Below the pieces are notes generated by a model that searched no databases, had not been told where the DNA came from, and saw nothing but the letters and a program-made list of their open reading frames with translations. Below are positions 3,829 to 48,511 of a stretch of DNA of 51,644 bases, piece by piece. A program made the position numbers and the translations under genes. Position 1 is the first letter of the stretch; the number at the start of each line of letters is the position of its first letter. The stretch is taken from the NCBI GenBank assembly GCA_018664825.1, contig JABJNO010000023.1:1-51644 (forward strand). The letters run 5' to 3'. Origin of the DNA: Candidatus Parcubacteria bacterium. Lineage in GTDB: Bacteria; Patescibacteriota; Patescibacteriia; UBA1558; GWA2-36-10.

Positions 3829-3920
3829 TTGTGAAAGAGCGTCCTCAAAACTTATTTTTTGAGGCTTCTTCCTGCTAATTCAGGACCGTGAAATATACCA
3901 TTTTTATAGTATTTTGTCAA
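3829..3920 (-). promoter_or_regulatory. Promoter, leader hairpins and boxA-like motif of the 3750 cassette
   Basis: TTGACA(3920-3915)-17-TATATT; hairpins CCTG/CAGG and CCTCAAAA/TTTTGAGG; then CGCTCTTTCACAA (3841-3829). Confidence 0.75.
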
Positions 3921-3972
3921 TCATAAAACCCTTTACTTGATAAAGGGCTAAAAGTTATGTTTTTATAGTGTA

Positions 3973-4542
3973 TTACTTTACTTTTTTGTACCTAAAACAC
4001 TCAATAGTATGATCATTTACCATGCCCGCTGCCTGCATAAAAGCATAGCAAATAGTACTTCCTACAAATTTAAAACCCTTTTCCTTTAAATCTAGGCTCA
4101 TTTTATCAGAAATGGCTGTTTTTGCAGGAATCTGTGACATTTTTTTAAACTTATTTTGAATTGGCTTATAGTCTACAAATTGCCAAATATACTTATCAAA
4201 ACTGCCAAATTCCTTTTTTAGTTCCAAATATCTGACTGCATTATTGATAGTAGCCAATATTTTGAGTCTATTCCTGATTATTCCAGCATCAGCCAAAAGT
4301 CTATTTATATCCCTTTGGGTAAATTCTGATATTTTTACAGGATCAAAATTGGCAAAGGCTTTTTTGAAATTTTGTCTTTTATGCAAAACAGTTCGCCAAC
4401 TCAAACCCGCCTGAAAAGCGTCCAATACAAAAAACTCAAAAAGCTTACGGTCATTGTGAAGTGGTACCCCCCACTCCTCGTCATGATATTTTATCATCAG
4501 CTGATCATCACTTGGCCACTGACAACGTTTTTGATCTGGCAT
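3973..4542 (-). CDS. tag: DNA-3-methyladenine glycosylase I
   Basis: RC.W, YHDEEWG, FQAGLSW, IIRNRLKI, FKFVG, AAGMVNDH..C family motifs. Confidence 0.95.
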   Translation of the reverse strand: MPDQKRCQWPSDDQLMIKYHDEEWGVPLHNDRKLFEFFVLDAFQAGLSWRTVLHKRQNFKKAFANFDPVKISEFTQRDINRLLADAGIIRNRLKILATINNAVRYLELKKEFGSFDKYIWQFVDYKPIQNKFKKMSQIPAKTAISDKMSLDLKEKGFKFVGSTICYAFMQAAGMVNDHTIECFRYKKVK

Positions 4543-5210
4543 TATTTTCTAAACTTAGTTTGTTTGTCTCGCCATTTTTTTATTTCTCCATGATGCCCAG
4601 AAAGTAAAACATCAGGAACTTTATATCCCTTGAATTCTTCGGGACGAGTATATTGAGGAAATTCAATGTTGAACTCGGTGGTTTTTTTGTCATACTCAGA
4701 AAAAGATTCCTCTTCTACTGATTCTTGTTTGCCTACTACTCCTGGGATCAACCTAGCTACACTATCGACTACACAAGCGGCGGCCAACTCTCCACCAGTC
4801 AATACAAAATTACCTAGCGAAATTTTCTCATCAATAAAATTGTCTATGCGCGCATCTATTGCTTCATAGTGTCCGGCAATCAAAATAATTCTTTTATACT
4901 TTGATAATCTTTTTACTTCATTTTGATTTAAAGTCTGACCACGAGGTGACATCAAAATCACGCGAGTGTTTTTATTTTTCTTTTTATAAACTTTTTTCAA
5001 AGTTTTATAAACTGGCTCAATCTGAAGTACCATGCCAGGACCACCACCATAAGGAGTATCGTCTACCGTCCTTCTCTTGTCGGTAGTCTGTTCACGGATA
5101 TCATGAGTATTTATACTTATCAGTTTATTTTTTTGAGCTCTATCCAAAATCGAACAGTTGAAATAACTATTTAGTGACTCTGGAAAAATTGTTAGAATTT
5201 CGAATTTCAT
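4542..5210 (-). CDS. trmD: tRNA (guanine37-N1)-methyltransferase
   Basis: LTIFPE, VDDTPYGGGPGM, GHYEAIDAR, SLGNFVLTGGE, PQYTRP motifs. Confidence 0.98.
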   Translation of the reverse strand: MKFEILTIFPESLNSYFNCSILDRAQKNKLISINTHDIREQTTDKRRTVDDTPYGGGPGMVLQIEPVYKTLKKVYKKKNKNTRVILMSPRGQTLNQNEVKRLSKYKRIILIAGHYEAIDARIDNFIDEKISLGNFVLTGGELAAACVVDSVARLIPGVVGKQESVEEESFSEYDKKTTEFNIEFPQYTRPEEFKGYKVPDVLLSGHHGEIKKWRDKQTKFRK

Positions 5211-5211
5211 A

Positions 5212-5643
5212 TTATTTTATATTACTCAAATCTTTAGCCAGGACAATTGGTTGCATTGCTACAATCTCATCGGTATAGCTAATTTCTGGAATATTATTTA
5301 ACAAAAATATTTTTTTATTTAAAATAAATGCAAAACCTATTTCCAAAAAGGAACTTCCTCCGATGTATCCGGAAATATTATTTTTATCTTCATTTACTAC
5401 CAAAATAGCGTCCGAAGATTCAATTTTTTTATGATGATTTATAATGGCATTATTTTTTATAACTCTATCAGCAGCGGCTTGAGTACCTTTTTCAGAATCA
5501 ATTTCTTTTTGATCAAAAATACCCTTCAAGATTTTTTCTGTACTTGCCGGCAATAAAACTTCATGCCCTAAATTTTCTAACTCCTTGGCAATTTTACCCA
5601 TTTCTTGAGAAAAGGCCAAACTACCACAAATTGTTATCTTCAT
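5212..5643 (-). CDS. Nucleoside 2-deoxyribosyltransferase-like protein
   Basis: Rossmann-like ITICGS start, SDAILVVN, GSSFLEIGFAFILNKKI matches the NDT/DMP N-glycosidase pattern. Confidence 0.6.
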   Translation of the reverse strand: MKITICGSLAFSQEMGKIAKELENLGHEVLLPASTEKILKGIFDQKEIDSEKGTQAAADRVIKNNAIINHHKKIESSDAILVVNEDKNNISGYIGGSSFLEIGFAFILNKKIFLLNNIPEISYTDEIVAMQPIVLAKDLSNIK

Positions 5644-5722
5644 AGTTTTAGATTACTATATATTTGGCAAAAACAAAAGACCGCTGAATTGCGGCCTTTC
5701 ATTTTAATATAAAATGTTCAAA

Positions 5723-6067
5723 TTATAATTTTAGATCATCTACATCAGCGTCTGTTACAGATTCAGTCACAGGTTCAATTACAGGTTCAGAACTTGCAGC
5801 TGGTGCTGGGGCATCTCCACCCTCTTTTTCTGGTTCGTAAACTTTCAAATTGACATAAGAATTGTTCTTGTTGCCAATGATACGCAAAAGTGTTCTTAGA
5901 GAACGTGCGGTTTGACCTTGCTTACCAATGATCTTACCCATTTCTTCTGGATTGACTTTCAAAGTCAATAAAACTCCTCTTTCGTCGATATTCCTTTCAA
6001 CAACTACGTCTTCTGGTTTGTCGACCAACGCTTTAACGATTGTTTCCAAAAATTCTTTATCATCCAT
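5723..6067 (-). CDS. khpA: KH-domain RNA-binding protein KhpA
   Basis: MGKIIGKQGQTARSLRTLL KH motif; directly downstream of rpsP. Confidence 0.92.
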   Translation of the reverse strand: MDDKEFLETIVKALVDKPEDVVVERNIDERGVLLTLKVNPEEMGKIIGKQGQTARSLRTLLRIIGNKNNSYVNLKVYEPEKEGGDAPAPAASSEPVIEPVTESVTDADVDDLKL

Positions 6068-6162
6068 TTCTTTGTTGGTTAATGATTTTCTTATTCAATT
6101 ATTCCTATTTAAAGAATAACTCATTTATTATATAATCGGTTGTAAATAACGTCAAGAAAATT

Positions 6163-6612
6163 TTATTTCTTTTCTTCTGCTTCGGCTGGTTTAGGCTCTT
6201 CTTTTTTAGGCTCTTCTTTTGGCTCTTCTTTCTTTTCTTCTACTTTTTCTTCGGCTGGTTTTGCTTTTTCTTCGGCTGGTTTTTCAGCTGATGCAGATTT
6301 TTCTTTTGCCTCGGCTTTGGCACCCTCTAGTTTAGCCCTTCTTTTTTTGCTAATACTAACGGATTTCTTTTTATCTCCAGTGACAATACCTGCTTTCAAA
6401 AATAAATTATGAACAGTCTCTGAGGCTTGAGCCCCATTGTCTAGCCAATGTTTTATTCGTTCTTCTTTTAGGTCTGTATCTTTTGTATGAGGATTATAGG
6501 TACCCAAAATCTCCAAATGATTCCCGTACATGTCTTTGGATTTCTCAGAAACAACAACTCTATACATTGCTAGTTTCTTTCTACCTACTCTTTGCAATCT
6601 AATAGCTAACAT
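6163..6612 (-). CDS. rpsP: 30S ribosomal protein S16 with Lys/Glu/Pro-rich tail (start corrected to 6612)
   Basis: MLAIRLQRVGRKK..YRVVV, LGTYNP, WLDNGAQASETV; the ORF-track N-terminal 30 aa are not S16-like. Confidence 0.97.
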   Translation of the reverse strand: MLAIRLQRVGRKKLAMYRVVVSEKSKDMYGNHLEILGTYNPHTKDTDLKEERIKHWLDNGAQASETVHNLFLKAGIVTGDKKKSVSISKKRRAKLEGAKAEAKEKSASAEKPAEEKAKPAEEKVEEKKEEPKEEPKKEEPKPAEAEEKK

Positions 6613-6775
6613 TTTCAATTTTAGCTTAATAATTAATTGGTATATAACGGGGTCAATATTACTATATTTGCCTTTCTTTGTCAATATCCGTGGGAAATCC
6701 ACAAAATAAGCTAGACTTTAGCTGGTATAAGGTTGTATAATACAAATCAGATAAAATAACTTAAATTGAACAAAA

Positions 6776-7615
6776 ATGAACAAAGATTTACTTATTGGAT
6801 TTATTGGTCAAGGCTTTATTGGCAAAAATTATGCCGATGACTTTGAAAACCGAAACTACAAAATTGTCCGCTATGATATAGATAGCTATGCTGATAATAA
6901 GGATAAAATCAAAGAGGCTGATATTGTCTTGATAGCCGTACCTACTCCTACAACTCCCCAGGGATTTGACTATAGCATCGTCCAAGAAGTCTTGAAATTG
7001 ATAGGCAAAGGGAAAATAGCTGTCATAAAATCTACATTACAGCTTGGCACAACTCGTAAGCTACAAGAGCTCTATCCTGATATTACTGTCATGCATTCAC
7101 CTGAATTTTTGAGAGAAGTTTCGGCTGCCGAAGATGCAAAAAAACCAAATAGAAACATTGTCGGTATTGTTGATAAAGAAAATAAAGATTTATATAAAAA
7201 AGCAGACCTTGTGATGAAAACTTTGGCCAAGGCGCCCTATGAATTGATCACTAATTCCGAAGATGCTGAAATGATAAAATATGGCGGCAATTGTTTTCTT
7301 TATACAAAAGTAATCTTTATGAACATTTTTTACGACTTGATAAATAAAAATAATCTTGATTTTGAAACTATAAAAACTGCTCTAGCGGCTGACCCTCGCA
7401 TAGGCGATAGTCATCTGGGCGTAGTCCATGATGGCGGTCGAGGTGCTGGTGGACATTGTTTTATCAAAGACTTTGAGGCTTTTATAGAAATGCTAGACAA
7501 AAACGAACTATCCGATCAAAGCAAAACTGCTCAGGAAATTCGTAATCTAAACTTAAAATATTTACGGGACTCTGGAAAAAATCTTGACCTCATAAAAGAT
7601 ATCTACGGAAAATAA
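6776..7615 (+). CDS. UDP-glucose/GDP-mannose dehydrogenase family protein, lacking the C-terminal domain
   Basis: GFIGQGFIG NAD motif, IAVPTP, IKST, HSPEFLRE, catalytic GGHCFIKD; only 279 aa. Confidence 0.85.
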   Translation: MNKDLLIGFIGQGFIGKNYADDFENRNYKIVRYDIDSYADNKDKIKEADIVLIAVPTPTTPQGFDYSIVQEVLKLIGKGKIAVIKSTLQLGTTRKLQELYPDITVMHSPEFLREVSAAEDAKKPNRNIVGIVDKENKDLYKKADLVMKTLAKAPYELITNSEDAEMIKYGGNCFLYTKVIFMNIFYDLINKNNLDFETIKTALAADPRIGDSHLGVVHDGGRGAGGHCFIKDFEAFIEMLDKNELSDQSKTAQEIRNLNLKYLRDSGKNLDLIKDIYGK

Positions 7616-7616
7616 A

Positions 7617-7655
7617 AATAAAGCCCCTCTCAATTTTGAGAGGGGCTGTTTTTTT
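7617..7655. terminator. Bidirectional intrinsic terminator
   Basis: GCCCCTCTCAA/TTGAGAGGGGC inverted repeat with A and T tracts between convergent genes. Confidence 0.85.
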
Positions 7656-7895
7656 TCAGGAAGAAGTTTCCACGGAATTGATTTCGGCGAGAGGAATCTC
7701 CTTCGCTTTTCCGCCATTAGGAATCACGCGAAATTTTTTGCCCTGCTGACAATAACTGGTAACTTTATAAACATCGATGACGTGTCCTTCCCAGGTAATG
7801 ATCCTAGGATTCTTGATAGGATTAAGGCCAGCCAAATCTTCGATGATTTGCTGTTCACGGCTAAGTTTGGCAGATGTGGGGTTAGTATTGCTCAA
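7656..7895 (-). CDS. Small hypothetical protein (79 aa, TTG start)
   Basis: SD AAGGAGG 7 nt before TTG; own promoter TTGACA(8016-8011)-17-TATACT; ends at a terminator. Confidence 0.65.
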   Translation of the reverse strand: MSNTNPTSAKLSREQQIIEDLAGLNPIKNPRIITWEGHVIDVYKVTSYCQQGKKFRVIPNGGKAKEIPLAEINSVETSS

Positions 7896-8087
7896 TTCTT
7901 ATCCTCCTTGAATGGTTTGGATTGTGAAGACCACCGGCTTGAGACTCCTTTCTTGAAAAAATAAATATTAAAGGGCTGGATTTTTCCAGTATAATTATTA
8001 TCCCTTTATTTGTCAACAGATTCGATAAACTCACTGCAAGTAAATAAAAAACCACCTAAATTGGGTGGTTTTATTTAAAATATTATT

Positions 8088-10676
8088 TTAGGCTGCTATT
8101 TCATCTGCTTGATCAAAGTTTACAGACAACAATTTGGACACTCTATCATCTCCCATTGTCACTCCATAAATAATCTTGGCTTTATGCATAGTTGCTCTAT
8201 TATGAGTAATGGCTATAAACTGAGTTTTGTCTGACAACTCATCCAAAATTTCTACAAAACGTACTGAATTAGCCTCATCTAGGGCTGCATCTACTTCATC
8301 AAGTACTACAAATGGAGATGGATTGTTGGCAATAATGGCGCAGATTAGAGCGATAGAGGTCAAGGCTTTTTCACCACCCGAAAGCATATTGATACTAGAC
8401 AATCTTTTTCCTGGAGGAGTAGCTTTGATATCAATGCCGTATTCTTTTTTAATTACTTTCTTTTTTATTGGTTTCTCTTGTTCCTCATCATCCCCTTCTT
8501 CTTCGTCACCTTCATCACTTTCTTCCTCTTCTTCAAAAACTTCTTTGATATTCAAAATCAATTCTGCTTTACCACCACTAAATAATTTTTTGAAATACTT
8601 GTCAAAAAGTTTATTGATACTTTGAAAAGATTTGTTAAACTGATCAGAAATTGATTCATCCAAATCTTTGATTATTTTTTCTAAATGCTTGATAGCTTCA
8701 TTCAAATCAGTTGTTTGCTCATTCAAAAAATTGTACCTTTCTGAAACTTCTTTATATTCTTCCAAAACCAACTCATCTATACCACCTATAATGCTAAGTT
8801 GATTTTTTAAATTCAAAATTTTATCCTTGGTGGCTGACAAATCTATATTGGAAACTTTTTTGACTTGCAAATCAGAAATTTCTTCGTTGATTTCTTTTAT
8901 CAATTCTTCCCATCTAGTTTCCAGTCTAGCCAATCCTACCTTTACTTCGTTTAGTTGATTGTTTTTTTGATTGAAGTCTTCCTGAACCTGCCTGAATTCT
9001 TTTTGAGATTTTACTAGAGATTGTTTTTTAGCTTCTTCTTGTCTATTAAAATCTTTTATTTTGTTTTCTATCTCTTCGATGTCTTTATTATGTTTTTCTA
9101 CCTTAGCTTGCAATTGACTGAGTTGATCTTTTATTCCTGAATCCTCTCCTTGTTTACCCAACAAGCTTTGTTGATCTGCCTCTAGCTTGTTTAGCTCATG
9201 AGTATCTTCTTCGATGTCTTTTTTTAGTTTATCGACTTCGCTACGAACAATGGCTGTGCTAGTACGAGCATCTCCAATTTCTGATACCAGTGTATCCTTG
9301 GTCATCAAAAGCTTGTTAAACTCACCCTGCCAATGCCCTCTATTATCTTCTTTTGATACTTTTACTTTGTTCCAAAGTTTTGAAAGAACCTCGGTCAAAC
9401 TCTTTGCTTTTTGACGTAAACTATCTATTTTTTCTAGGCTTTCCAGTCTTTCAAGACTTTCTTGTAGTTCCCTTTGTTGTTTTAGTATGTTATTCAAAGC
9501 CGTTGAGATGTCTTCACTAGACAAATCTTGCGGTGGATTCAAAAGTTTTTCTTCTAGTTTTTTGAACTCTGCCAAAATCTTTTCTCTTTTTTCTTCCAAA
9601 GATGCAAACTCTTCTTTTGCTTGAGATAGTTGCTGTTGTTTTTCTGATAAAATTATTTTGTTTCTACTAAGGGTATTCTTGAGACTAGTCATCCTGTCTT
9701 TGAGCCAAACAATATCTGCTTGACCAGTTTTCATCAATTGCAAATCTGCCTTTCCTTCCAAAATTGTTTTTTCTTTTACGATGCTATTGAGCTCACTTTG
9801 AGCTTGTTGAAGTTTTTGTTGAAGCAAATCAAAGCTATCTTGCCGAGAAGATCCTCTTTCTTCTTTTTCTAGATTGGTTTGTAGCTCTACCAACTTTTGA
9901 TTTAGACTTGAAACTTGTTTTTGTAATCCATCAAAGCTATGACGACTGGTTTGTAAGTCTTTGTCTAGATTATTTTTTTGAAAACTATAATATTCTGTTT
10001 GTAAGTCTTTTAATTCTGTTTCTATTTTTTCACGACGCTCAAGTTTTTTTACTTGCCTAGTCAAACTACGTAACCTTGGCTCAAGCTCAGTCAAAATCTG
10101 GCCAGTTGCTTCCAAATTCTTTTTTGTACCCTCTAGTTTGTTGAGCGACTGATTTTTTTTGATTTGAAATTGCCTCACACCAGTAGCTTCATCAAAAAAA
10201 TCTTTTCTCTCGGGCCCTGAAGCGGTCAGTATAGAATCGATCATACCCTGCCCAATCACACTATAAGTCCTTTGACCAAAATTTGCTTTAGCCAAAAGTA
10301 GCTGAACGTCCAATAATCTTACTTTGTTGTTATTTATAAAATATTCTCCCTCACCATTTCTATCTACTTTACGAGAAATTATTACTTGCTCATAATCAAT
10401 GTCTGCGGTTTTGTCACTATTGTTCAAATAAAGGTCCACTTGAGCAAAACCCAAACGAGCCTTTTTGTCTGATCCAGAAAAAATAACATCCTCGGCTTTT
10501 TTACCACGAAGAGTTTTGGTACTTTGTTCTCCTGTCACCCAACGGATAGCGTCGGCTGCATTTGATTTACCAGAACCATTTGGACCAACTATAGCTGTCA
10601 TCTCACGATTAAAAACCAACTCCAATGGGTTGGCAAATGATTTGAATCCTTGAATTTCTAGTTTTTCTAAATACAT
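8088..10676 (-). CDS. smc: SMC chromosome segregation ATPase (862 aa, no recognisable hinge)
   Basis: Walker A GPNGSGKS, signature LSGGEK, Walker B/D-loop LDEVDAALD, coiled coil between. Confidence 0.93.
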   Translation of the reverse strand: MYLEKLEIQGFKSFANPLELVFNREMTAIVGPNGSGKSNAADAIRWVTGEQSTKTLRGKKAEDVIFSGSDKKARLGFAQVDLYLNNSDKTADIDYEQVIISRKVDRNGEGEYFINNNKVRLLDVQLLLAKANFGQRTYSVIGQGMIDSILTASGPERKDFFDEATGVRQFQIKKNQSLNKLEGTKKNLEATGQILTELEPRLRSLTRQVKKLERREKIETELKDLQTEYYSFQKNNLDKDLQTSRHSFDGLQKQVSSLNQKLVELQTNLEKEERGSSRQDSFDLLQQKLQQAQSELNSIVKEKTILEGKADLQLMKTGQADIVWLKDRMTSLKNTLSRNKIILSEKQQQLSQAKEEFASLEEKREKILAEFKKLEEKLLNPPQDLSSEDISTALNNILKQQRELQESLERLESLEKIDSLRQKAKSLTEVLSKLWNKVKVSKEDNRGHWQGEFNKLLMTKDTLVSEIGDARTSTAIVRSEVDKLKKDIEEDTHELNKLEADQQSLLGKQGEDSGIKDQLSQLQAKVEKHNKDIEEIENKIKDFNRQEEAKKQSLVKSQKEFRQVQEDFNQKNNQLNEVKVGLARLETRWEELIKEINEEISDLQVKKVSNIDLSATKDKILNLKNQLSIIGGIDELVLEEYKEVSERYNFLNEQTTDLNEAIKHLEKIIKDLDESISDQFNKSFQSINKLFDKYFKKLFSGGKAELILNIKEVFEEEEESDEGDEEEGDDEEQEKPIKKKVIKKEYGIDIKATPPGKRLSSINMLSGGEKALTSIALICAIIANNPSPFVVLDEVDAALDEANSVRFVEILDELSDKTQFIAITHNRATMHKAKIIYGVTMGDDRVSKLLSVNFDQADEIAA

Positions 10677-10828
10677 TGAAATAAAAATATGTCCTTAAAA
10701 GACGGTATTATTTTACCATATTTTACAATTAAAATAAACTATAATCATTGACAAAATAGCAAAAAGATGTTAAATTATATTGTTTTTATTGAACCTTACA
10801 AACCCTTTCCAAAATAGGAGGTGCCACT

Positions 10829-12135: not shown

Positions 12136-12242
12136 GACTTTCCTCCTATTTTTGAAGCTTTTTCAAGCGTTTCAATGACAATGTACTTATTTAAGAATAT
12201 ATAATTATAGCATAAAAATACTAAAATGTCAATGATAATAAG

Positions 12243-12377
12243 AAAAAAGCCCCCTCTTCCAATAGTGGGCTTCTGACAGAACGACCTTTTGGGTAACGGC
12301 AATCACATGGATTAACCAGGACGAGCATGGCGGAAGCAAATTTTGGAAGAGGGGGCAATGTTTAATGTACGATTGAG
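12243..12377 (-). ncRNA. Candidate small RNA A (14-bp closing stem plus U-tract)
   Basis: Promoter TTGACA(12412-12407)-17-TAGTAT; boxA-like 12371-12360; perfect inverted repeat 12343-12356/12249-12262 followed by U6; no SD-led ORF. Confidence 0.55.
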
Positions 12378-12413
12378 AAACTCATACTACTATAACAAAA
12401 GTCAATTGTCAAT

Positions 12414-12612
12414 AAAAAAACCACCCTCTAAGCAGTTTTTTATTGAAAAAGCTGGCAAAGAGGGTGGGGCGAGAAAGTAGGTCGTTGTAAGATGTTGAGT
12501 TTCCACTCTGCGGTGTTTTGGAGGTGTCCAAATAAAAAATGTGGGGGAAAGCTTTGGCGCGACTCAAAGACAAACAACAGAGCTTACAACGACCATTTCA
12601 AAGATCTATATA
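12414..12612 (-). ncRNA. Candidate small RNA B (12-bp closing stem, irregular rod, terminator)
   Basis: boxA-like AGATCTTTGAAA (12607-12596); GGTCGTTGTAAG/CTTACAACGACC at 12583-12594 and 12480-12491; terminator 12421-12467 plus U-tract. Confidence 0.6.
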
Positions 12613-12632
12613 TATATTAGCAAAATTTTGTA

Positions 12633-12775
12633 TAAAATAAAACCCCCTATATTTCTATAGGGGGTGTTGGGGAGCAGGCGCACGGCACGGGCATGGGAAA
12701 TTGACACAAAAGGAGTCAGCAGGAGAGGGTGCGATTGAACCGCCAAGTTTAGAAAGTATGAAAGTACTCTGATAT
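12633..12775 (-). ncRNA. Candidate small RNA C (C/U-rich, terminator-ended)
   Basis: Promoter TTGACA(12810-12805)-17-TAAAAT; boxA-like AGTACTTTCATA; terminator CCCCCTATA/TATAGGGGG at 12643-12664. Confidence 0.5.
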
Positions 12776-12813
12776 GTCTATATTTTATCAAATAAAAAAA
12801 GTGGTGTCAAATT

Positions 12814-13507: not shown

Positions 13508-14371
13508 TTATTTTATACCCAATTTATCCAGGCCAGTGTTAAATATTTCTTTGGCATTTTCATAGCCCAAAATATCCAATGCCTCTTGTTTTGTAAACCA
13601 TTTTACATCTTTTAGTTCTTTTACTTTTGGTACTATAATTTTTGTATCCTCAGTTTCAATCAAAAAATATTTTATCAACTTTCTGTATGGCTTTTCATTT
13701 GGTTTATGAACTTTGACCGTAGTCTCTCCTAGATATTCTCTAGGATCCAAATTTTCTAGACCAGTTTCTTCTTGTAATTCACGAACAGCTGTTTCTTCTA
13801 ATTTTTCCCCTTCTTCAACTCCCCCTTTTGGAAAAGTCCATTTGTCATAAGCATCCAAAACAAGTACAAAATGAAAGCCGTCATCTTCTTGGCGATAAAT
13901 CATACCACCAGCAGAGACCTCTTTTATTCCTTGGCTGGACATAGATTGTTTTTCTCCATTTTTGACCATCTCTTTGTAGATGCTACCCAATACTCCGTTG
14001 ACAAATTTTCCACTAGAATCTCCTCCATAAGCCTTGGCTAATTCAATAGCTTCGTTGATGGCTACCTTTGGTGGAATCTCTGGATCAAATTTTAATTCAT
14101 AAATTCCCATACGCAAAACATTGCGGTCAGTCATAGTAATCTGATCAAGTGGCCACTCAGGAGCAAATTGAGTAATAATTTTATCAATTTCTTCTTGTTT
14201 TTTGATTACTGCCTCTGCCAAATGCAAAGAAAAATCCTGATCATCAAAATCAGGAGCAAATTCTTTTTTGTTGTGCTCTACAACTTTTTTAATTTTACGC
14301 TTACCATTGTTAAAATCCCACTCAAAAAGAGACTGCAAGACAATATTACGCGCTAAATGTCGATTTGCCAT
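13508..14371 (-). CDS. nusB: Transcription antitermination factor NusB fused to a C-terminal Nudix hydrolase
   Basis: N-half: RNIVLQSLFEWDF, DRNVLRMGIYEL, INEAIELAKAYG, FVNGVLG. C-half: intact Nudix box GGVEEGEKLEETAVRELQEETGL. Confidence 0.95.
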   Translation of the reverse strand: MANRHLARNIVLQSLFEWDFNNGKRKIKKVVEHNKKEFAPDFDDQDFSLHLAEAVIKKQEEIDKIITQFAPEWPLDQITMTDRNVLRMGIYELKFDPEIPPKVAINEAIELAKAYGGDSSGKFVNGVLGSIYKEMVKNGEKQSMSSQGIKEVSAGGMIYRQEDDGFHFVLVLDAYDKWTFPKGGVEEGEKLEETAVRELQEETGLENLDPREYLGETTVKVHKPNEKPYRKLIKYFLIETEDTKIIVPKVKELKDVKWFTKQEALDILGYENAKEIFNTGLDKLGIK

Positions 14372-17499: not shown

Positions 17500-17825
17500 T
17501 GATATTGTACATAGATAAATCGCTGTTGGAAAAGAGTGCTCTAGAGGGCCGAAGTGGAAAAGGATTTGGTTGGCAGCAGTCAACTTTACTCCCTGTCTAG
17601 TAGGACACACAAATCTACACCCAAGTAGGGTGTGCCATTCAGTTGTTTGGGCTAGGAGTCCCCGTGAGACTCCGAAAGCGGAGTAAACCCAAACAGAGAA
17701 GTGGCTAGTCTGCCGTCTCGGACGAATGTGTGTTGTCAGACGTACATGACTACCTTTGGTTTGCACCACCTTATTCAACAGCGTACCACCCCCCGTCAGG
17801 CTGAGCTTGACGGGGGGATTTTTTT
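17500..17825 (+). ncRNA. Candidate large structured RNA E (about 263-nt rod/multibranch plus terminator)
   Basis: Promoter TTGACA(17466) with extended -10 TGgTAAAGT; closing arms 17521-17534/17770-17783; several internal hairpins; 11-bp terminator 17789-17817 plus T7. Confidence 0.65.
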
Positions 17826-17859
17826 GACCAATTTTACACTTTGGTATATTATGCTATAT

Positions 17860-18006
17860 TAAAAATATATAGTTCTTTTGGAAATCAGCACAATGCCGTG
17901 CTTATCAAAAAGAAAGGTGGGAACGCTGAAGGGGTGAGTCGTTACAGGGACAACACTCTGAAGCTCTGTATAGATGTATTATTTACTATACAGAGCTTCT
18001 TTTTTT
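17860..18006 (+). ncRNA. Candidate small RNA F
   Basis: Promoter TTGACC(17824)-17-TATTAT; boxA-like AGTTCTTTTGGAAA at 17871; perfect 14-bp terminator 17960-17999 plus T-tract; no convincing ORF. Confidence 0.45.
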
Positions 18007-18725: not shown

Positions 18726-18828
18726 TTAAGCCACTTCCTTCATTTGAGCTTATATTATGGAATGAACTACCCAGAAATTACTATACAAACAAATATATGT
18801 CAACCAAAAAAATAGCCCTTGGGCTATC

Positions 18829-19524: not shown

Positions 19525-19668
19525 TTAAATTTAAATAACGCCTATATTTATACCTAAATTTTGATAAAAGTCAATAAAGAACCCCTCCTAGTTAACTATA
19601 CTTGCAAACTATAAAAAAACATTGTAAGCTCAGGAAAGTTATTTTGTTCATTTAATAAAGGAGAAAAA

Positions 19669-19836
19669 ATGGAATACCCCTTTGATTACAGAAGCGCCAA
19701 AACACACAACCTGGTTACTACTGCCGACAGATCAGGCGCTATACCCATCCCCATTGCTCTTGGCCTTGATAAACAAGCCAAGGACGAGCACGTGAGATCT
19801 CAAATCAACAGATCCAGGCGTATGGATGACTACTAG
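19669..19836 (+). CDS. Small hypothetical protein (55 aa, not in ORF track)
   Basis: MEYPFDYRSAKTHNLVTTADRSGAIPIPIALGLDKQAKDEHVRSQINRSRRMDDY; promoter TTGCAA(19602)-17-TAAGCT, SD AAGGAG, terminator ATCCTCTAGAT/ATCTAGAGGAT. Confidence 0.65.
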   Translation: MEYPFDYRSAKTHNLVTTADRSGAIPIPIALGLDKQAKDEHVRSQINRSRRMDDY

Positions 19837-22387: not shown

Positions 22388-22792
22388 TTATTCTTCGATT
22401 TGAATTTCTTCAATATCTATCTCCTCTTTAGCTGTTTCGTCCCCTTTTATCTCTTTTTTGTTACGACCACCTAGCATAATAAGGTCAGAAGCTACAATTT
22501 CTGTAATATACTTCTTGTTTTTGTCCTTATCTTCGTAACTTCTATTTTGTAGACGGCCTTCCAAAAAGATTTTTGAGCCTTTTTTTAGATAAGTTGAGAT
22601 AATCTCCGCCAATTTCCCCCAAGCCACTACTTTGTGAAAATCAGCTCGACTCTTTTTTTCCTTGGTCTTAACGTCTTTCCAATTATAATTGGTTGCAATG
22701 CTGAACAGGGCAATGCTTTGTCCAGAAGGTAAACTTTTTGCTTCTGGGTCACCGGCTAAATTGCCGATTAAACTCACTTTGTTTAAATCCAT
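22388..22792 (-). CDS. ssb: Single-stranded DNA-binding protein (start corrected to 22792)
   Basis: MDLNKVSLIGNL..DPE, FSIATN, VAWGKLAE, LKKGSKIFLEGRLQNRSY; SD AAGGAG. Confidence 0.95.
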   Translation of the reverse strand: MDLNKVSLIGNLAGDPEAKSLPSGQSIALFSIATNYNWKDVKTKEKKSRADFHKVVAWGKLAEIISTYLKKGSKIFLEGRLQNRSYEDKDKNKKYITEIVASDLIMLGGRNKKEIKGDETAKEEIDIEEIQIEE

Positions 22793-23104
22793 ATCGCTTT
22801 TCTCCTTTCTTTTCCTATCCACCAGCCGGCAGAAGGAACACTTATTAATTATTGACAAAATGGCCATTTTGTACTACTCTATCGATGAGACTAACCTAGT
22901 TAGCTCTCAAAATCGCTTTTCTTCACAAAAACCCCCGTTTCGGCGGGGGTCTTTGTATTTTTTAGCCGTCTCAAATGAGGTGGCTATTTAATTTGTATTT
23001 GTATCTTATAAATAAAAAAAAATACTGTCAAGCTTTACAATTTTTTTACCTGTTGCTAATCTGAATATACTTAGTTCGTTTCAAACTTTAAATACAAGGA
23101 GGTA

Positions 23105-28140: not shown

Positions 28141-28144
28141 ACCT

Positions 28145-28161
28145 ATACCCTCTATGGGTAT
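28145..28161. promoter_or_regulatory. CsoR-type operator overlapping the -10/+1 of the csoR-trxA-trxB operon
   Basis: Inverted repeat ATACCC-TCTAT-GGGTAT, the G/C-tract palindrome form typical of CsoR operators. Confidence 0.75.
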
Positions 28162-28197
28162 TATACTACCGCTTTGTTTATTTGTCAATACAAAATA

Positions 28198-29167: not shown

Positions 29168-29334
29168 CTTAACTCCTTTTAGATTTAATGAACATTTACA
29201 CGGAAAAACATATCAATATAACAGGATAACTCGTTGCTTGTCAATAATGCTTGACAAATACTTGAATATATGCTATGATTATATATTATCGTAGAACGTT
29301 CCTTTAACCCAAAACCTCAAAAGGAGGTGAAAAA

Positions 29335-30692: not shown

Positions 30693-30785
30693 TTATAAAA
30701 CAAAAATCTGCCTATCAAAAAGGCAGTCTAAAAAACGAATTAGATTGTGTGGCGATATCGGACTGGGCTCGTCAATAATCATCAT
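30693..30785 (-). promoter_or_regulatory. Leaderless Pro-rich uORF overlapping a terminator hairpin (putative attenuator)
   Basis: Extended -10 TGgTATTAT 6 nt before ATG; peptide MMIIDEPSPISPHNLIRFLDCLFDRQIFVL; hairpin CTGCCT/AGGCAG at 30708-30726 plus T-tract. Confidence 0.5.
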
Positions 30786-30851
30786 ATTTATATAATACCA
30801 GAATTTGAAAATAGGGGACAGCGTGCCACATCTTGCTGTGGCAAATTTGCA

Positions 30852-38288: not shown

Positions 38289-38460
38289 GATTTACCTTCT
38301 TTTTGTTGAGTGTTTTTAAGGATCGAAAATAACCACATAAAATATCATAAAGGTGTTTTTTTGTCAATACATAAACCCAGTAAACATGGGTTTTTTTTAT
38401 CTTATTTTTAATAGTTGTACACAAGGCCTTTGCAAAGGTTTAAAAAGTTTGTTATAATAT

Positions 38461-41838: not shown

Positions 41839-41847
41839 TATTTTTGT

Positions 41848-43107: not shown

Positions 43108-43194
43108 AATATACTATTAAACTATATAATATCTTACTTGTCTAGGCAAAATAAAAAGCCCCGATTTTGTAATCGGGGCTTGTAATGTTCAAAC

Positions 43195-43668
43195 CTAATC
43201 TCGACTTGAGATCATGTGACGAAGTCCATGGAAACTAGACCAGATGATCCAGCCAACCAAACAGGCTATGGCGACAAACATTATTGTGCCATCCACATAA
43301 ACACCTATTTTCAGAAGGTGAGCAAAGATAACGCTGATATTAGCAAAATACAGTAGCCAAGCTAGGATTCCACAGAAAACTAGTGAAGCTAGTATTTTGA
43401 GTTGACCAGCGCCACTGAGGCTATCATTGGAAATTGGCGGAGAGGTGCGAATCACCCAGATGGCACAGAGGCTAATCAACAGGGTCCATAGGACAGGATC
43501 GACAAACGAGTGTTTGATATCAAAGGCGTGTTCGCCTCCATTCATGGTTAATTCGACATCAATCCAGCTTGAATCTGTCATAGGGGTGGGAATCAAAAAG
43601 ATACAGCGACTAATAGCTAGTGTGATTACAGTCACAAAAAGCAGGATTTTTAGTTGTTTTCTGGACAT
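43195..43668 (-). CDS. Hypothetical membrane protein (about 4 TM)
   Basis: SD GGAGG, promoter TTGACA-17-TAGTTT, terminator AAGCCCCGATT/AATCGGGGCTT at about 43156-43181. Confidence 0.7.
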   Translation of the reverse strand: MSRKQLKILLFVTVITLAISRCIFLIPTPMTDSSWIDVELTMNGGEHAFDIKHSFVDPVLWTLLISLCAIWVIRTSPPISNDSLSGAGQLKILASLVFCGILAWLLYFANISVIFAHLLKIGVYVDGTIMFVAIACLVGWIIWSSFHGLRHMISSRD

Positions 43669-43803
43669 TTTTATCCTCCGTGGTTTGAAAATTCAAGGAA
43701 CGCTTATTGACTATTTAATTAATAGTTCAAACTACTATAATGATTGTTTTTTGTCAAAGCTCTCATCATTGAATTTGTTTAAAAACTCTGATAAAATAAG
43801 TCC

Positions 43804-44373
43804 ATGATAGCATATATAAAAGGAAAGATTATAAATAAAACAAACAGGTCTATAGTTGTTTTGACGGGTGGAATTGGTTATGAAGTATTTTTACCTCTAA
43901 AACAGCTGGAAACCATCAAGATTAATGATGAAAAAGAGCTTTTTATCTATTCACACATAAAAGAAGACATGTTTGATTTGTATGGTTTTTCAAAAGAAGA
44001 AGAAATGGATTTTTTTAAAAAAGTAATTTCAGTTTCTGGTGTTGGTCCAAAATCAGCTCTCAACATCCTGGGTCTGACTAGTGTAGAGGATCTCAAAAGA
44101 GCTATTGCTAGTGAGGATCCTAGTCTACTCCAAAAGGTTTCGGGTATTGGCAAAAAAACAGCCGAGAGACTCGTGGTGGAACTCAAAGAAAAGTTTATAG
44201 TTGATTTGTCTGAAAAGATTGTGGTCAGCAACAAAGATAAACAAGTTGTAGATGGTCTTGTGTCCTTGGGCTACAAAGAAAGTGAAGCCAAGGAGGCGGT
44301 CAATAGTTTATCAAAAGAAGAGATGGATTTGGCCACCCGCATCAAACAAGCTTTGCAGGTATTGAATAAATAA
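43804..44373 (+). CDS. ruvA: Holliday junction branch migration protein RuvA
   Basis: MIAYIKG, GGIGYEV, DLYGF, VSGVGPKSAL, VSGIGKKTAERLVVELK, LVSLGY. Confidence 0.97.
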   Translation: MIAYIKGKIINKTNRSIVVLTGGIGYEVFLPLKQLETIKINDEKELFIYSHIKEDMFDLYGFSKEEEMDFFKKVISVSGVGPKSALNILGLTSVEDLKRAIASEDPSLLQKVSGIGKKTAERLVVELKEKFIVDLSEKIVVSNKDKQVVDGLVSLGYKESEAKEAVNSLSKEEMDLATRIKQALQVLNK

Positions 44374-45381
44374 ATGGAATTAGTAAACAAAAAAAACAAT
44401 TACGATGAGTTTTTAAAAACCAGGTTCATTTCTGGTAATTTTTTACAATCTAGTATTTGGCAAGATTTTTTGGATAAACAAAAAAAAGTTTTTTGGCAGG
44501 TCGCTGTAATAGAAAACAATCAAACAATAGCCAGTTGTTTGCTTTATGAAAATAAATTGATGATGGGACGCAGCTATCTCTATGCGCCAAAGGGGCCGAT
44601 AATCTCCAATGAGCTTTCTGATCAAAAAATAAAACAAGCTCTGGGATTGATATTGTCTCGGGCTAGGGATATTGCTATTTCGACAACCAAAAAAGAAGAA
44701 ATATTTTTTAAAGTAGAATTGGAAAAAGAAAACTTACCAGAACTGACAAAATGTCCCGATGTTCAACCACGTGACACCTGGGTACTTGATATCGACAAAG
44801 ATCCAAAAGAACTTTTGGGCGACATGCATCAAAAGACTCGTTACAATATAGCATTGGCTAGGCGGCATGGAGTGACTACACGATTTAGTAAAGACGAAAA
44901 AGACATAAAAGATTTTCTGCGCCTGATAAAAAAAACATATTCTCGTAATCAAATCACTGCTCACTCAGATGATTATTACAAAACTCTTTTTAAGGTTTTA
45001 TTGAGGCATGGTGCGGGACAACTTTGTTTGGCAGAAGTAAATAAAAAAGTAATTGCTGCCAATATGATTATCAGATTTGGTCCAGCTGTCACTTATCTGC
45101 ACGGGGCATCTGATTATAAGTTCCGTAAGCATATGGCTCCGCAACTTTTACAATGGGAAACAATAAAACAATCAATAGAGCTTGGCTATAAGGTTTATGA
45201 TTTTTGGGGCATTGCTCCCGAGGATGACAGTAAGCCAAATTGGGCGGGCATCACTAGATTCAAAAAAAGTTTTGGTGGCAGAGCTGTCACAAGCCCAGGG
45301 TCACACAACTTGATATATGATAAAAACTGGTATAAGGTTTATCAACTGATTGGACGCTTAAGAAAGGTTATTAAAAGATGA
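44374..45381 (+). CDS. FemABX-family peptidoglycan aminoacyltransferase
   Basis: NFLQS..W, YAPKGP, KTRYNIALA, YLHGAS, YDFWG, GITRFKKSFGG. Confidence 0.9.
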   Translation: MELVNKKNNYDEFLKTRFISGNFLQSSIWQDFLDKQKKVFWQVAVIENNQTIASCLLYENKLMMGRSYLYAPKGPIISNELSDQKIKQALGLILSRARDIAISTTKKEEIFFKVELEKENLPELTKCPDVQPRDTWVLDIDKDPKELLGDMHQKTRYNIALARRHGVTTRFSKDEKDIKDFLRLIKKTYSRNQITAHSDDYYKTLFKVLLRHGAGQLCLAEVNKKVIAANMIIRFGPAVTYLHGASDYKFRKHMAPQLLQWETIKQSIELGYKVYDFWGIAPEDDSKPNWAGITRFKKSFGGRAVTSPGSHNLIYDKNWYKVYQLIGRLRKVIKR

Positions 45382-46103
45382 TAAAAAAGGTACTGATTTC
45401 AGCAGCTGGTCGTGGTACCAGGATGTTAGATTTATCCAAAGACAAGCCAAAACACCTTATAGAAGTAAACAAAAAACCCTTTCTTTATTATCTTTTGGAT
45501 AATTTGAAAAAAGCTGGCTTTGAAGAAATAATAATGGTAGTTGGCTACAAAAAAGAATTTATGGAAAGTTTTTTGGCTGAATACAAAGATGATTTTCATA
45601 TTACTCTGGTCAACCAATTTGATGTTTTGGGAGAAGATAGATATGGTACAGCTTGTCCGCTTGAGTGCACAAAAGACTTATTGCAAGGACAAAGTTTTTT
45701 AGCAGTTTATGGTGACAACTTATATTCAGTTGAAGACTTAAAAAGATTAAATATAGACGATGGTTATTCTTATATAGCCGGCTTGGCTCATGAGACTCCA
45801 GAAAAATATGGAGTACTACAAGTAGAGGGTGGACTCTTGAAAAAGATTGTTGAAAAACCAGCTAAGCCAATTGGCAATTTGATAAACACCGGACTTTATA
45901 AATTTAGCCCAGAGGTTTTTGATCATTTGGATAAAATAGATTTGTCTCCTCGTGGTGAATATGAGCTGACAGATGTGATAAACATTTTGGCAAAAAAAGA
46001 CAAGGTCAAAGCGATAGACCTCAGGGGTGTTTGGCTAGACTTTGGCAAGCCGGGAGATATAAAAAAAGTAGAACAATATTTAGATGCTGAAAAAAATAAT
46101 TAA
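45378..46103 (+). CDS. Sugar-phosphate nucleotidyltransferase family protein
   Basis: ISAAGRGTRM..PKHL, YGTA, YGDN, EKP, INTGLY, RGEYELTD. Confidence 0.88.
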   Translation: MIKKVLISAAGRGTRMLDLSKDKPKHLIEVNKKPFLYYLLDNLKKAGFEEIIMVVGYKKEFMESFLAEYKDDFHITLVNQFDVLGEDRYGTACPLECTKDLLQGQSFLAVYGDNLYSVEDLKRLNIDDGYSYIAGLAHETPEKYGVLQVEGGLLKKIVEKPAKPIGNLINTGLYKFSPEVFDHLDKIDLSPRGEYELTDVINILAKKDKVKAIDLRGVWLDFGKPGDIKKVEQYLDAEKNN

Positions 46104-47364
46104 AAAAGTAGTTCCCAAAAAGTTATTATTGACTTACCATTTTCTTTTGGCAAAATTGGCGTCTTTGTTTTATGGAAATCCTAGCAACAAGTTGATCATA
46201 ATAGGAGTGACGGGTACAAACGGAAAAACCACGACTGTAAATTTTATTTCTCAATATTTAGAATGTCTTGGTCAAAAAACAGGATTAGCTTCTACTGTAA
46301 ATTTTAAAGTCGATAAAAAAGAATGGCTCAATGATAAAAAGATGACCATGCTTGGTCGTTTTCAAACACAAAGACTTTTGAAAGACATGGTGGAGGCGGG
46401 TTGCAAGTATGCGGTGATAGAAACATCATCCCAAGGGGTGGAGCAATTTCGTCACGCAGGTATAAATTATGACTTGGTTGTTTTTTGCAACCTGACGCCT
46501 GAGCATATTGAGGCGCATGGTGGTTTTATAAATTATCGTAAACAAAAAGAAAAACTCTTTGAACATTTATCAAAAAGTAAAGTTAAAGATTTTTTTGGTA
46601 AAAAAATTATTGTAACCAACAACGATGATGAAGAGAGTGATCGCTTGAAAAAATTCAAAGTAGATAAGTTTAAAACTTATGGTTTTGAAAAAACATCTGA
46701 CTACCAAGGTAGTAATATTGTATTAGATGATGGCTTGGTTTCTTTTGAAATAAAAAATCAAAAAATCAAAACAAATTTGATTGGTAGATTTAATGCCTAC
46801 AATGTATTAGCCTCTTTGTCAGCGGTAGCTGAGTTGGGCTTTGAATTTTCCAAAATGATTGATTGTAAAATAAATGGTGTACCTGGTAGGCAAGAATTGA
46901 TAGAACAGGGGCAGGATTTTAAAATAATGATAGATTATGCACCTGAGCCAGAAAGTCTCAAGCAACTTTATCAAGCCCTAAAAAGTATACCAAAAAATAG
47001 ATTGATACATGTTTTGGGTTCTTGTGGTGGTGGACGCGACAAGGCTCGCCAACCTGTTTTGGGTAAAATGGCTGGAAAACGAGCTGATATTGTAGTTATT
47101 ACCAATGAAGATCCTTATGACGATGATCCTGTGGAGATAATAGATAATGTGGCTAGTGGTGCAATTGAAGCTGGAAAAGAAGTAGATAAAGACCTATTTA
47201 AAGAAGAAGATAGGGTAAAAGGTATTGAAAAGGCACTAAAATTGGCCAAAAAGGGTGATTTGGTATTAATAACAGGTAAAGGAGCAGAACAATATATATG
47301 TAGCAAAAATAATACTAAAATACCCCACGATGATCGTACAATAGTAAAAAATTTGCTAAAATAA
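46084..47364 (+). CDS. murE: UDP-N-acetylmuramyl-tripeptide synthetase (MurE-like)
   Basis: GVTGTNGKTT, ETSSQG, NLTPEH, GRFNAYN, VPGRQE, GGGRD, VVITNEDP, GKGAE. Confidence 0.88.
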   Translation: MLKKIIKKVVPKKLLLTYHFLLAKLASLFYGNPSNKLIIIGVTGTNGKTTTVNFISQYLECLGQKTGLASTVNFKVDKKEWLNDKKMTMLGRFQTQRLLKDMVEAGCKYAVIETSSQGVEQFRHAGINYDLVVFCNLTPEHIEAHGGFINYRKQKEKLFEHLSKSKVKDFFGKKIIVTNNDDEESDRLKKFKVDKFKTYGFEKTSDYQGSNIVLDDGLVSFEIKNQKIKTNLIGRFNAYNVLASLSAVAELGFEFSKMIDCKINGVPGRQELIEQGQDFKIMIDYAPEPESLKQLYQALKSIPKNRLIHVLGSCGGGRDKARQPVLGKMAGKRADIVVITNEDPYDDDPVEIIDNVASGAIEAGKEVDKDLFKEEDRVKGIEKALKLAKKGDLVLITGKGAEQYICSKNNTKIPHDDRTIVKNLLK

Positions 47365-47485
47365 GCCAAAAAATAATGATTCTAATAAAAATAGGCCTTG
47401 ACAAAAGGCCTGTTTTTTGATATATATACATAATTCGCATTTCGCGTATTGTTCACTAAAATCAAATAAAAAAGGAGGTCTAAGG

Positions 47486-48211
47486 ATGCAAACCTGGATT
47501 GTTTTGTCCGCGGTTTTCGGAGCTTTATTGGCGAGTTTTGCCAATGTATTGATCTATCGTCTACCCAACAACATAAACCTAGTGATTCCTGCCACCTCTT
47601 TTTGTCCTAGCTGTAAAACCAAAATCAACTGGTACGATAAGGTACCTATTTTTAGCTGGTTGTTTCTCAAGGGAAATTGTCGTCATTGCGGACAAGAAAT
47701 CAGCATGCGCTACATAATTGTAGAAATGTTGGGAGCTTTGTTTGCTGTGTTGGCCTGTTTCCATTTTGGCTTTAACATGACAGCTCTAACTGCTTTATTG
47801 CTCTTTATCAATCTAATGGCAATCGCTATTATTGATTGGCAACATCAGATTATTCCACATACCCTGACTATTTCAGGTATGGTTATTGGACTGGCTTTGG
47901 CGCCGTACAACAACAGAGGAATTGAAGATGCTATTATTGGAGCAATTATGGGTGCTTGTATTATCTTGTTGCTTTCTTATGGCTACAAGGCTTTTACTAG
48001 CCGACATGGCATGGGAGGAGGAGATATATTGCTCCTAGCAATGATTGGGACCTATTTTGGTCCAGTAGGAGCGGCTATAATTTTGTTTGTAGCAGCTATA
48101 TTAGTAATCCTCTTTGTCACCCTGGTGCGTCGTTGGCGCATAGAGCGCACTGACAAGCTTTCGCTTGGTAGTTTTCTTTCGGTGGCAACAATTTTGATGT
48201 TATTGTCATAA
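47486..48211 (+). CDS. Prepilin peptidase (A24, PilD-like; start corrected to 47486)
   Basis: S.CP.C...I.WYD.VPI.SW..L.G.CR.C zinc domain, IIDW, MGGGDI; SD AAGGAGG. Confidence 0.93.
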   Translation: MQTWIVLSAVFGALLASFANVLIYRLPNNINLVIPATSFCPSCKTKINWYDKVPIFSWLFLKGNCRHCGQEISMRYIIVEMLGALFAVLACFHFGFNMTALTALLLFINLMAIAIIDWQHQIIPHTLTISGMVIGLALAPYNNRGIEDAIIGAIMGACIILLLSYGYKAFTSRHGMGGGDILLLAMIGTYFGPVGAAIILFVAAILVILFVTLVRRWRIERTDKLSLGSFLSVATILMLLS

Positions 48212-48252
48212 GGGTAATAACTACGCTTTTCTTTTGGAGAAAGGAACGTATC

Positions 48253-48411
48253 ATGGCAGAAGAAAAACCCCAAAGAAGATTTGGTTGGATAGATGTTTTG
48301 CTGATATTGGTGATCATTGCAATCCTCTTGTCTGTTTCGATTGTTAAATTTGAAAGAAACCCAAGTGGGGTTGATTCTACCGCTGTTTCCACAGAAGCAG
48401 TCAAGCAGTAG
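48253..48411 (+). CDS. Mini pilin-like protein with degenerate class III signal (52 aa, not in ORF track)
   Basis: MAEEKPQRRFGWIDVLLILVIIAILLSVSIVKFERNPSGVDSTAVSTEAVKQ; aligns with the N-terminal helix of the adjacent pilin; SD-like AAGGA. Confidence 0.6.
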   Translation: MAEEKPQRRFGWIDVLLILVIIAILLSVSIVKFERNPSGVDSTAVSTEAVKQ

Positions 48412-48511
48412 ATTTCTTTAATTAGAAATCTAGAAAGGAGAAGATCTGCTCAGCCTCAATGTAACAAGATGTGGCACATTTAAAAGAAACCGTTCTTGAA
48501 GGAGAAAAGTA

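Follow-up and report, generated by a model that had tools for sequence, protein, structure and literature searches.

Eight nucleotides of boxA RNA, (U/G)GCUC(U/C)UU, are read in the NusB-NusE-boxA crystal structure, with G2, C5, U6 and U8 as the key positions and no base-specific contacts beyond position 8 (PMC3177189). NusB of B. subtilis binds AUGAUCUUUGAAA (PMC13753749). Control by boxA and Nus factors is seen as serving rRNA almost exclusively, gamma-proteobacterial genomes having a handful of mRNA targets each, and in the 5' untranslated region (5'UTR) of one of these, suhB, boxA (consensus GYTCTTTAANA) lies a few nt off the 5' end, with 6 nt between it and the Shine-Dalgarno (SD) sequence; mutation of C4 or T6 abolishes its function (PMC5725501). 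The subject here is a motif of similar core, GTTCNT(T), found in transcript leaders of a Candidatus Parcubacteria bacterium of the candidate phyla radiation (CPR). The window analysed is a stretch of 51,644 nucleotides (contig JABJNO010000023.1) from the chromosome of this Parcubacteria/Komeilibacteria-like organism and is low in GC (~36%). In leaders of Komeilibacteria-like Patescibacteria GTTCNT(T) is a genuine element specific to the RNA strand, with established strand specificity, promoter-proximal position, association with SD-led genes, presence in relatives and match to the NusB-contacted core. The explanation we prefer, tentatively and with a probability of about 0.4, is that it is a boxA-like leader element which may be read by NusB and S10.

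The motif shares with rrn boxA (E. coli UGCUCUUUAACA, B. subtilis AUGAUCUUUGAAA) the letters G-Y/W-U-C-x-U-U, corresponding to the 8 nt contacted by NusB-NusE, and its place on the transcribed strand downstream of a promoter; what is conserved in it (G, T, T, C, -, T, T) falls on the contacted core and also on the positions C4 and T6 that suhB boxA needs. The site at 3829-3841 is moreover preceded by a hairpin, as in rrn boxB-boxA. Unlike rrn boxA, the motif sits on many mRNA leaders and small RNAs instead of rRNA, is without a conserved 3' AACA/GAAA part, leaves position 6 free and differs from the 16S leader element of its own clade, GCATTTTGACAATT. The absent 'AACAA' tail is no argument against a NusB site, because base-specific NusB-NusE contacts end at position 8.

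Likeness to suhB and the other mRNA boxAs (rpsJ, prsA, ParE-like toxin; Baniulyte et al. 2017, PMC5725501) rests on the shortness of the 5'UTR and on a motif near the 5' end and upstream of the SD. Boxes of this type occur within 50 nt of the start, and in the window 9-10 SD-led genes show the motif no more than 50 nt ahead of the SD. They provide the precedent for regulation of protein genes by Nus factors, but number 0-7 per genome and belong mostly to Nus and translation genes (PMC5725501), whereas here, over 52 kb, the motif is present in about two-thirds of the SD-led units, the targets are mostly lineage-specific small secreted or membrane proteins, and the nusB operon has none. The motif can be compared with the boxA of lambda nutL and nutR, which acts with N protein, in that both would be short, single-stranded boxes of early transcripts that lie close to a hairpin. 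It differs in that no N-like protein and no conserved boxB are found and the elements are chromosomal and dispersed.

The motif in leaders of the window and of related genomes

Transcription units of the window were sorted by the presence of an SD at the first gene, giving 15 SD-led and 20 non-SD units. A sequence-only reading of this DNA had cited 16 boxA-like strings under the consensus hGTWCHTTnAA. All 16 were located on the strands and at the positions given, while only 5 of them conform to that consensus, which is partly too loose and partly too strict and was rejected in its full form; its 3' 'nAA' part has zero information content in relatives. The placement described for the strings stood up, since every cited site lies 3' of a sigma-70-like promoter (TTGACA-17-TAnnnT) and either 5' of an SD-led open reading frame (ORF) or at the head of a promoter-to-terminator unit. 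The ruvA, csoR and ugd-like leaders are indeed without the motif. The same had been said of rpoB, upstream of which GTTCTTT does occur at 49300, yet as part of a terminator T-tract. A hairpin immediately 5' of the motif, reported for two sites, is evident at 3843-3864, weak at 7976.

Counted across the entire window, GTTCNTT shows no excess (34 matches, 40 expected). In sense leaders (n=37) it occurs 7 times against 1.17 expected (P<0.001), and twice on the antisense strand. Within the 50 nt before the SD, GTTC is found in 10 of the 15 SD-led first genes (3.4 expected from dinucleotide shuffles, P=0.0005) and GTTC.T in 9 of 15 (1.1 expected; antisense 0), while the corresponding counts for non-SD units are 1/20 and 0/20. 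The housekeeping genes of this genome largely lack an SD. Five sites match GYTCYTT exactly, namely those of hyp310, 17871 (+), hyp107, hyp157 and ssb. Enrichment over shuffled controls, proposed as a check on the motif, thus holds for the core GTTCNT(T) in sense leaders and fails for the variants GCCC (7976), GTAC (12371, 12768) and GATC (12607, 38325), which show no separate enrichment and are indistinguishable from chance; single cited sites, notably 7976 and the GTAC sites, are possibly there by chance. In an unbiased enumeration of 6- and 7-mers confined to the window, the motif ranks 22, behind -35, SD and -10 words, and is not significant after correction, so that the window alone is unable to settle its reality.

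Independent material came from 80 Patescibacteria loci around nusB, each of at most 21 kb, retrieved with an alignment of NusB-Nudix proteins, of the type described below. Promoters were predicted, near-identical copies dropped and the 40 nt after each -10 scanned. GTTC is the most enriched 4-mer after non-redundant promoters of the fusion-bearing set (36 vs 12.7), with CGTTC, AGTTC, GTTCT and GTTCTT likewise high, and it stands at the top of all 256 words in the closest clade under a dinucleotide-shuffle null (24 vs 13.8, z=3.3). The longer form GTTC.T[TC] after intergenic promoters is found 9 times vs 1.6 expected in the closest clade, 5 vs 1.2 in a clade further away that also has the fusion and 10 vs 2.4 in distant fusion-less Patescibacteria, an overall enrichment of ~4-6-fold, and in none of these three groups is the reverse complement enriched. 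The GTTC excess is limited to the sense strand downstream of promoters, with none upstream or antisense. GAAC shows no enrichment, with 6 occurrences vs 23 of GTTC in the closest clade and 14 downstream vs 16 upstream overall. Because independent loci reproduce the enrichment, pure chance is excluded for the GTTCNT core.

The position weight matrix from these loci reads G-T-T-C-N-T-(T) and nothing further, with no second half-site. Over 38 sites, G, T, T, C and the T at core position 7 are conserved, and a T is frequent at position 8. Motif starts lie 5-25 nt downstream of the -10, with a median of ~12; the motif therefore falls within about the first 20-25 nt of the RNA. Promoters bearing it lead to an SD-led ORF in 12/29 cases, compared with 45/294 for motif-less promoters (P=0.0014), and about one-third of them have no ORF inside 150 nt. 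Among distant Patescibacteria, post-promoter sites mostly read GTTCTTT(GA); the core of the present clade is looser, GTTCNTY.

Leaders at corresponding positions in relatives repeat this pattern (loci of relatives carry L-numbers; W is the window). PNP leaders were compared in four syntenic loci (W, L203, L204 and L206) with independent gene calls. They are unalignable outside the promoter, the SD and the motif position, and three of the four have GTTC at the latter (GTTCATT in W, GTTCCCC in L203, GTTCCTT in L204; GTACCTT in L206). Upstream of hsp20, the leaders of SD-led genes in six relatives all begin with GTTC[CTG]T. The genes in L005, L007, L008 and L011 form one orthogroup, those in L003 and L013 are unrelated ORFs at the same position, and none is detectably homologous to hyp225 of the window. 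The gap between rnc and SMC, which holds three promoter-to-terminator units in the window, holds two or three such units in L002, L005, L007, L008 and L011 as well, with 5' ends reading GTTCTTC, GTTCATT, GTTCTTT or GTTCGTT. One recognisably homologous RNA in this gap (ATCGCTCATGCCACC...) reads GATCGCT, CGTCGCT or GTTCGCT at the same position. The motif is also present ahead of rpmF in L009 and of KhpA in L012.

The motif had been said to head nearly every accessory unit, and a genome-wide licensing code through NusB had been suggested for this lineage. What the motif heads is ~2/3 of SD-led units and several small-RNA-like units. The accessory bias survives in that its carriers are chiefly SD-led genes, most of them lineage-specific, and non-coding units, rather than housekeeping leaders. 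The GTTCTTT(GA) form in distant Patescibacteria shows that it is not confined to this lineage, and both the accessory-unit claim and a licensing code exceed the data.

A candidate reader and competing explanations

The window encodes, at 13508-14371 (-), a NusB domain fused to a C-terminal Nudix domain (Pfam NusB and NUDIX), a candidate reader of the motif. This architecture is found in more than 100 protein clusters with 57-76% identity, many of them labelled Komeilibacteria or Patescibacteria. When the NusB domain is aligned to NusB of T. maritima and A. aeolicus, the equivalents of the U8-pocket residues G78, E81 and F122 are retained. For the Nudix part, Ap4A hydrolases (A. aeolicus 3i7u, T. 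thermophilus Ndx1) come closest, and the match to E. coli RppH is weak. NusB, presumably in this Nudix-fused form, with S10 is the best candidate reader; its identity as reader and the effect of binding we infer.

Transcripts bearing the motif are those that start with a long untranslated stretch, namely the 5'UTRs of SD-led, mostly lineage-specific genes and the small promoter-to-terminator RNAs. The motif would act as a single-stranded boxA-type site for the Nudix-fused NusB and S10, and their binding would deliver Nus factors to the early elongation complex. This might shield the untranslated leader or RNA against premature termination; alternatively, the SD-led gene might have its translation and termination coupled to the free pool of NusB and S10, as happens at E. 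coli suhB.

Several observations weigh against a reading by NusB and S10. E. coli NusB-NusE does not tolerate transversions at boxA position 6; the free position 6 of the motif, a purine at roughly half of the 38 sites, stands in contrast to this. Information content is confined to ~6 positions, and the most conservative null gives a modest 1.7-fold for bare GTTC. No preference for an unpaired context was seen when an accessibility bias was looked for (mean unpaired probability at the motif 0.53 vs 0.49 in control windows, P=0.52). The leader of the rpmF-nusB-rnc operon has no motif. Three metatranscriptomes give just two short contigs on the window, too sparse for 5' ends. Finally, the 16S leader of this genome carries a different boxA-like element, GCATTTTGACAATT, and the Komeilibacteria rrn element has lost the C equivalent to C5, which is invariant in the mRNA motif.

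The rrn element was followed across the phylum. In the window it is GCATTTTGACAATTTAGAAGTGA (898-920, -; RNA stretch GCAUUUUGACAAUU), located after a conserved stem in the leader of the 16S rRNA gene, the 5' half of which occupies 1-815 on the minus strand, and it forms the 5' strand of the leader-trailer helix by pairing with the 16S 3' flank (TCACTTYCYAGTTRTTAA). The closest relatives (16S identity 88-91%) have GTATTTTGACAA, GTTGTTTGACAA or [GA][TA]T[A]TTTGACAA as element, the leader stretches being GTATTTTGACAATT, GTTGTTTGACAATT and TATTTGACAACT. The Patescibacteria-wide form, G-N-A-C-TTTGACAAYT, is a good boxA candidate; the element of the window is conserved in relatives as (C)TTTGACAAYT. 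Since the clade's element differs and its C5 equivalent is lost, it has only the T-run in common with the leader motif, which is thus not the same element as that of its own 16S leader. None of the retrieved loci contains a 23S gene for a comparison with a 23S leader boxA.

A promoter of its own, a conserved leader stem (AGAAAAGGCAG...CTGTTTTTTCT) and the leader-trailer helix belong to the 16S gene (816-1095, -; also L099 and L141). In relatives an intrinsic terminator follows immediately past the 16S 3' flank, which points to unlinked rRNA genes. A P2 promoter at the TTGACAA of the 16S leader was considered and rejected, as Patescibacteria at large conserve this stretch with no -10, and it pairs with the 3' flank of 16S.

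A real RNA element with a different reader, its boxA likeness coincidental, is possible but on the whole unlikely. It might determine 5'-end stability or processing through an RNase or an RNA chaperone such as a cold-shock or KH-domain protein, or control translation of SD-led mRNAs. Strand specificity, location near the 5' end and SD association suit such an element, as do the short run of ~6 informative positions, the missing 3' AACAA/GAAAA part, the dissimilar rrn element of the lineage and the presence of a KhpA gene in the window. GTTCNTT, however, is fitted by boxA at least as well as by any known motif of those factors, and the distant-clade form GTTCTTTGA lengthens the boxA likeness. 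At the level of DNA, an asymmetric operator or half-site just past the promoter, or else some property of the initially transcribed region, could account for a position 5-25 nt after the -10 and for the palindromic contexts at hyp107 (GAACGTTC) and hyp549 (GTTCGTTTGAAC). This is improbable given that GAAC is unenriched, the spacing to the -10 varies and the matrix holds no second half-site. A palindromic operator or a Cheo-box-like site was rejected for this lack of GAAC enrichment.

Choosing strings by eye in AT-rich leaders, with chance matches to a loose pattern and a compositional bias of 5'UTRs, would explain why so few cited strings meet their own consensus, why the whole-window count falls below expectation, why the window enumeration gives no corrected significance and why the GCCC, GTAC and GATC variants find no support. 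It is hard to reconcile with enrichment, strand bias and SD association recurring in independent loci, with the GTTC retained in orthologous PNP leaders and with the 9/15 SD-led against 0/20 non-SD units of the window; for the GTTCNT core it is largely refuted, and as a general account we rate it as decidedly improbable. The least credible proposal is an anti-SD-like pyrimidine stretch (UUCCUU, CCUUC) that masks the SD, in the manner of a fourU/ROSE-like thermosensor or a translational switch. The motif does go with SD-led genes, UUCCUUU of hyp107 is able to pair with AAAGGAG, and relatives have the forms GTTCCTTC and GTTCCCTCC, yet pairing of motif and SD appears in minimum free energy folds of only 2/10 window leaders, on which grounds it was rejected as a general feature. 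GTTCATT and GTTCGTT are incapable of such pairing, and masking is inapplicable to non-coding units, which the motif also heads. A T-loop mimic (GTTCRA) was rejected too, as the motif has T where GTTCRA has a conserved A.

If the motif is indeed a site for NusB and S10, these ultra-small bacteria would have extended the boxA/Nus module to a large gene class, that of strong-SD, mostly lineage-specific envelope or secreted proteins and small RNAs. CPR genomes would then have two expression regimes, which would offer a handle on accessory-gene control. To our knowledge, CPR organisms encode very few classical regulators. The NusB-Nudix fusion is a concrete, assayable protein. Its fusion of NusB to an Ap4A-hydrolase/RppH-like Nudix domain, together with a motif in the first ~20 nt, permits but does not show a further model, one we regard as a long shot, in which a 5'-end pyrophosphohydrolase or decapping activity would be addressed by the motif to certain RNAs, the SD-led accessory mRNAs and the small RNAs, setting their decay or translation; this would be a new use of the boxA/NusB module and not antitermination. 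Even with a reader other than NusB, a conserved 5' leader signal is defined for an uncultured phylum in which, as far as we know, transcript-level signals have so far been uncharacterised. A literature search found no paper linking boxA to Patescibacteria leaders and no published description of the motif. New here are the comparison with the clade's rrn leader, the promoter-anchored cross-clade test, the SD association in independent loci and the 5'-proximal motif position taken together with the NusB-Nudix fusion.

Individual sites and neighbouring features

Apart from the 16S gene, the window contains housekeeping and small hypothetical genes, intermixed; its GC skew switches at dnaA (34288), and rpoB-rpoC-ftsK are its neighbours on a 106-kb contig. 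Most genes with the motif encode small hypothetical proteins, secreted or in the membrane; PNP, RNA ligase, pilD and pilin are further targets.

The hyp107 5'UTR has CGTTCCTTTAAC (29297-29308, +; RNA stretch GUUCCUUUAAC) 18 nt past the -10 and 14 nt ahead of AAAGGAGG. Its core, GTTCCTT, is identical to that of the Aquifex-type boxA. On the other strand, TGTTCATTAAAT (29183-29194, -; RNA stretch GUUCAUUAAAU) lies in the 5'UTR of the PNP-like gene. The hyp157 5'UTR carries CGTTCCTTGAAT (43691-43702, -), with GGAGG 11 nt further on, the hyp82 5'UTR AGTTCGTTTCAA (23073-23084, +), and the hyp225 5'UTR AGTTCATTCCAT (18757-18768, -), where the -10 lies 7 nt upstream. At 22830-22840 (-) TGTTCCTTCTG belongs to the leader of ssb, the true start of which is the ATG at 22792 with AAGGAG; the motif is not kept in the ssb leader of L204. 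The leader of the prepilin peptidase gene (pilD) has TGTTCACTAAAA (47450-47461, +), with the true start at 47486 and a 241-amino-acid product in the gene call. Next to the SD of the pilin gene, CGTTCTTGAA (48491-48500, +) matches GTTC.T and not GTTCNTT. The RNA ligase 5'UTR holds the GATC variant CGATCCTTAAAA (38314-38325, -).

Two sites precede ORFs that are absent from the 80-amino-acid ORF list. TGTTCATTTAAT (19645-19656, +) is found 15 nt past a TTGCAA-17-TAAGCT promoter and is followed directly by AAGGAGA and a 55-amino-acid ORF (19669-19836, +), whereas GCCCTTTAATA (7966-7976, -), a GCTCTTT core with one mismatch, comes after the promoter 7988-8016 and before an SD-led ORF of 79 amino acids that starts at 7895 (-) and ends with a clear terminator.

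In the leader of hyp310-hyp549, CGCTCTTTCACAA (3829-3841, -) directly follows the hairpin 3843-3864, downstream of the promoter 3892-3920, and agrees with E. coli boxA at 11/12 positions; ~0.4 near-matches of this kind are expected by chance in the window, as estimated from base composition. The arrangement of this site and hairpin is not kept in the ortholog leader of L001. Within the pair, GTTCGTTTGAAC (2833-2844, -), a site outside the 16 cited earlier, stands 17 nt ahead of the AGGAGG of hyp549 in a self-contained small hairpin. The hyp310-hyp549 pair (1160-3920, -) is GC-richer (~45%) and has no Pfam match, and its gene homologs in L001 are weak.

Among the small-RNA-like units, the one at 17824-17999 (+) is a ~140-nt arrangement of promoter, GTTCTTT and terminator, convergent on the 3' end of hyp225. 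Its motif AGTTCTTTTGGA (17871-17882, +) lies 11 nt past the -10, between the promoter 17824-17852 and the terminator hairpin 17960-17999. The three units between rnc and hyp212/SMC (12230-12810, -) are C-rich candidate small RNAs, and the units of this gap gave zero family matches in Rfam. Unit 1 has the GTAC variant AGTACTTTCATA (12757-12768, -) 13 nt past the -10 of the promoter 12782-12810, with a terminator at 12643-12664. The 5' end of unit 2 bears AGATCTTTGAAA (12596-12607, -; RNA stretch AGAUCUUUGAAA), a GATC variant that includes GATCTTTGAAA, which has 11/13 bases in common with AUGAUCUUUGAAA, the rrn boxA consensus of B. subtilis (PMC13753749). In unit 3, CGTACATTAAAC (12360-12371, -), again a GTAC variant, lies 13 nt past the -10 of the promoter 12384-12412, and the terminator arms are at 12345-12356 and 12249-12260.

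A look-alike of the motif upstream of rpoB, GAGTTCTTTTTTT (49296-49310, +), is the T-tract of the pilin terminator hairpin (cccaagagttggg) and is not to be counted. Upstream of ssb, a unit of promoter, short hairpin and GC-rich terminator occupies 22925-23003 (-); the terminator and the subsequent GTGAAGAAAAGCGATTTYGAGAGCTAACTAGGTTAG stretch are kept in L204. The csoR operon has an operator, ATACCC-N5-GGGTAT (28141-28170, -), which overlaps the -10/+1 and is conserved near letter-for-letter in L203, L204 and L206 (atacccccatagggtat). Ahead of the CNNM/CorB gene, a leaderless upstream ORF at 30719-30800 (-) encodes a peptide with the conserved D-[DE]-P-S-P (MMIIDEPSPISP in the window, compared with MNNSDDPSPN and MINSDDPSPN in the relatives, L203 and L204 being the loci used), and the conservation of this peptide in relatives supports translation of the leader.

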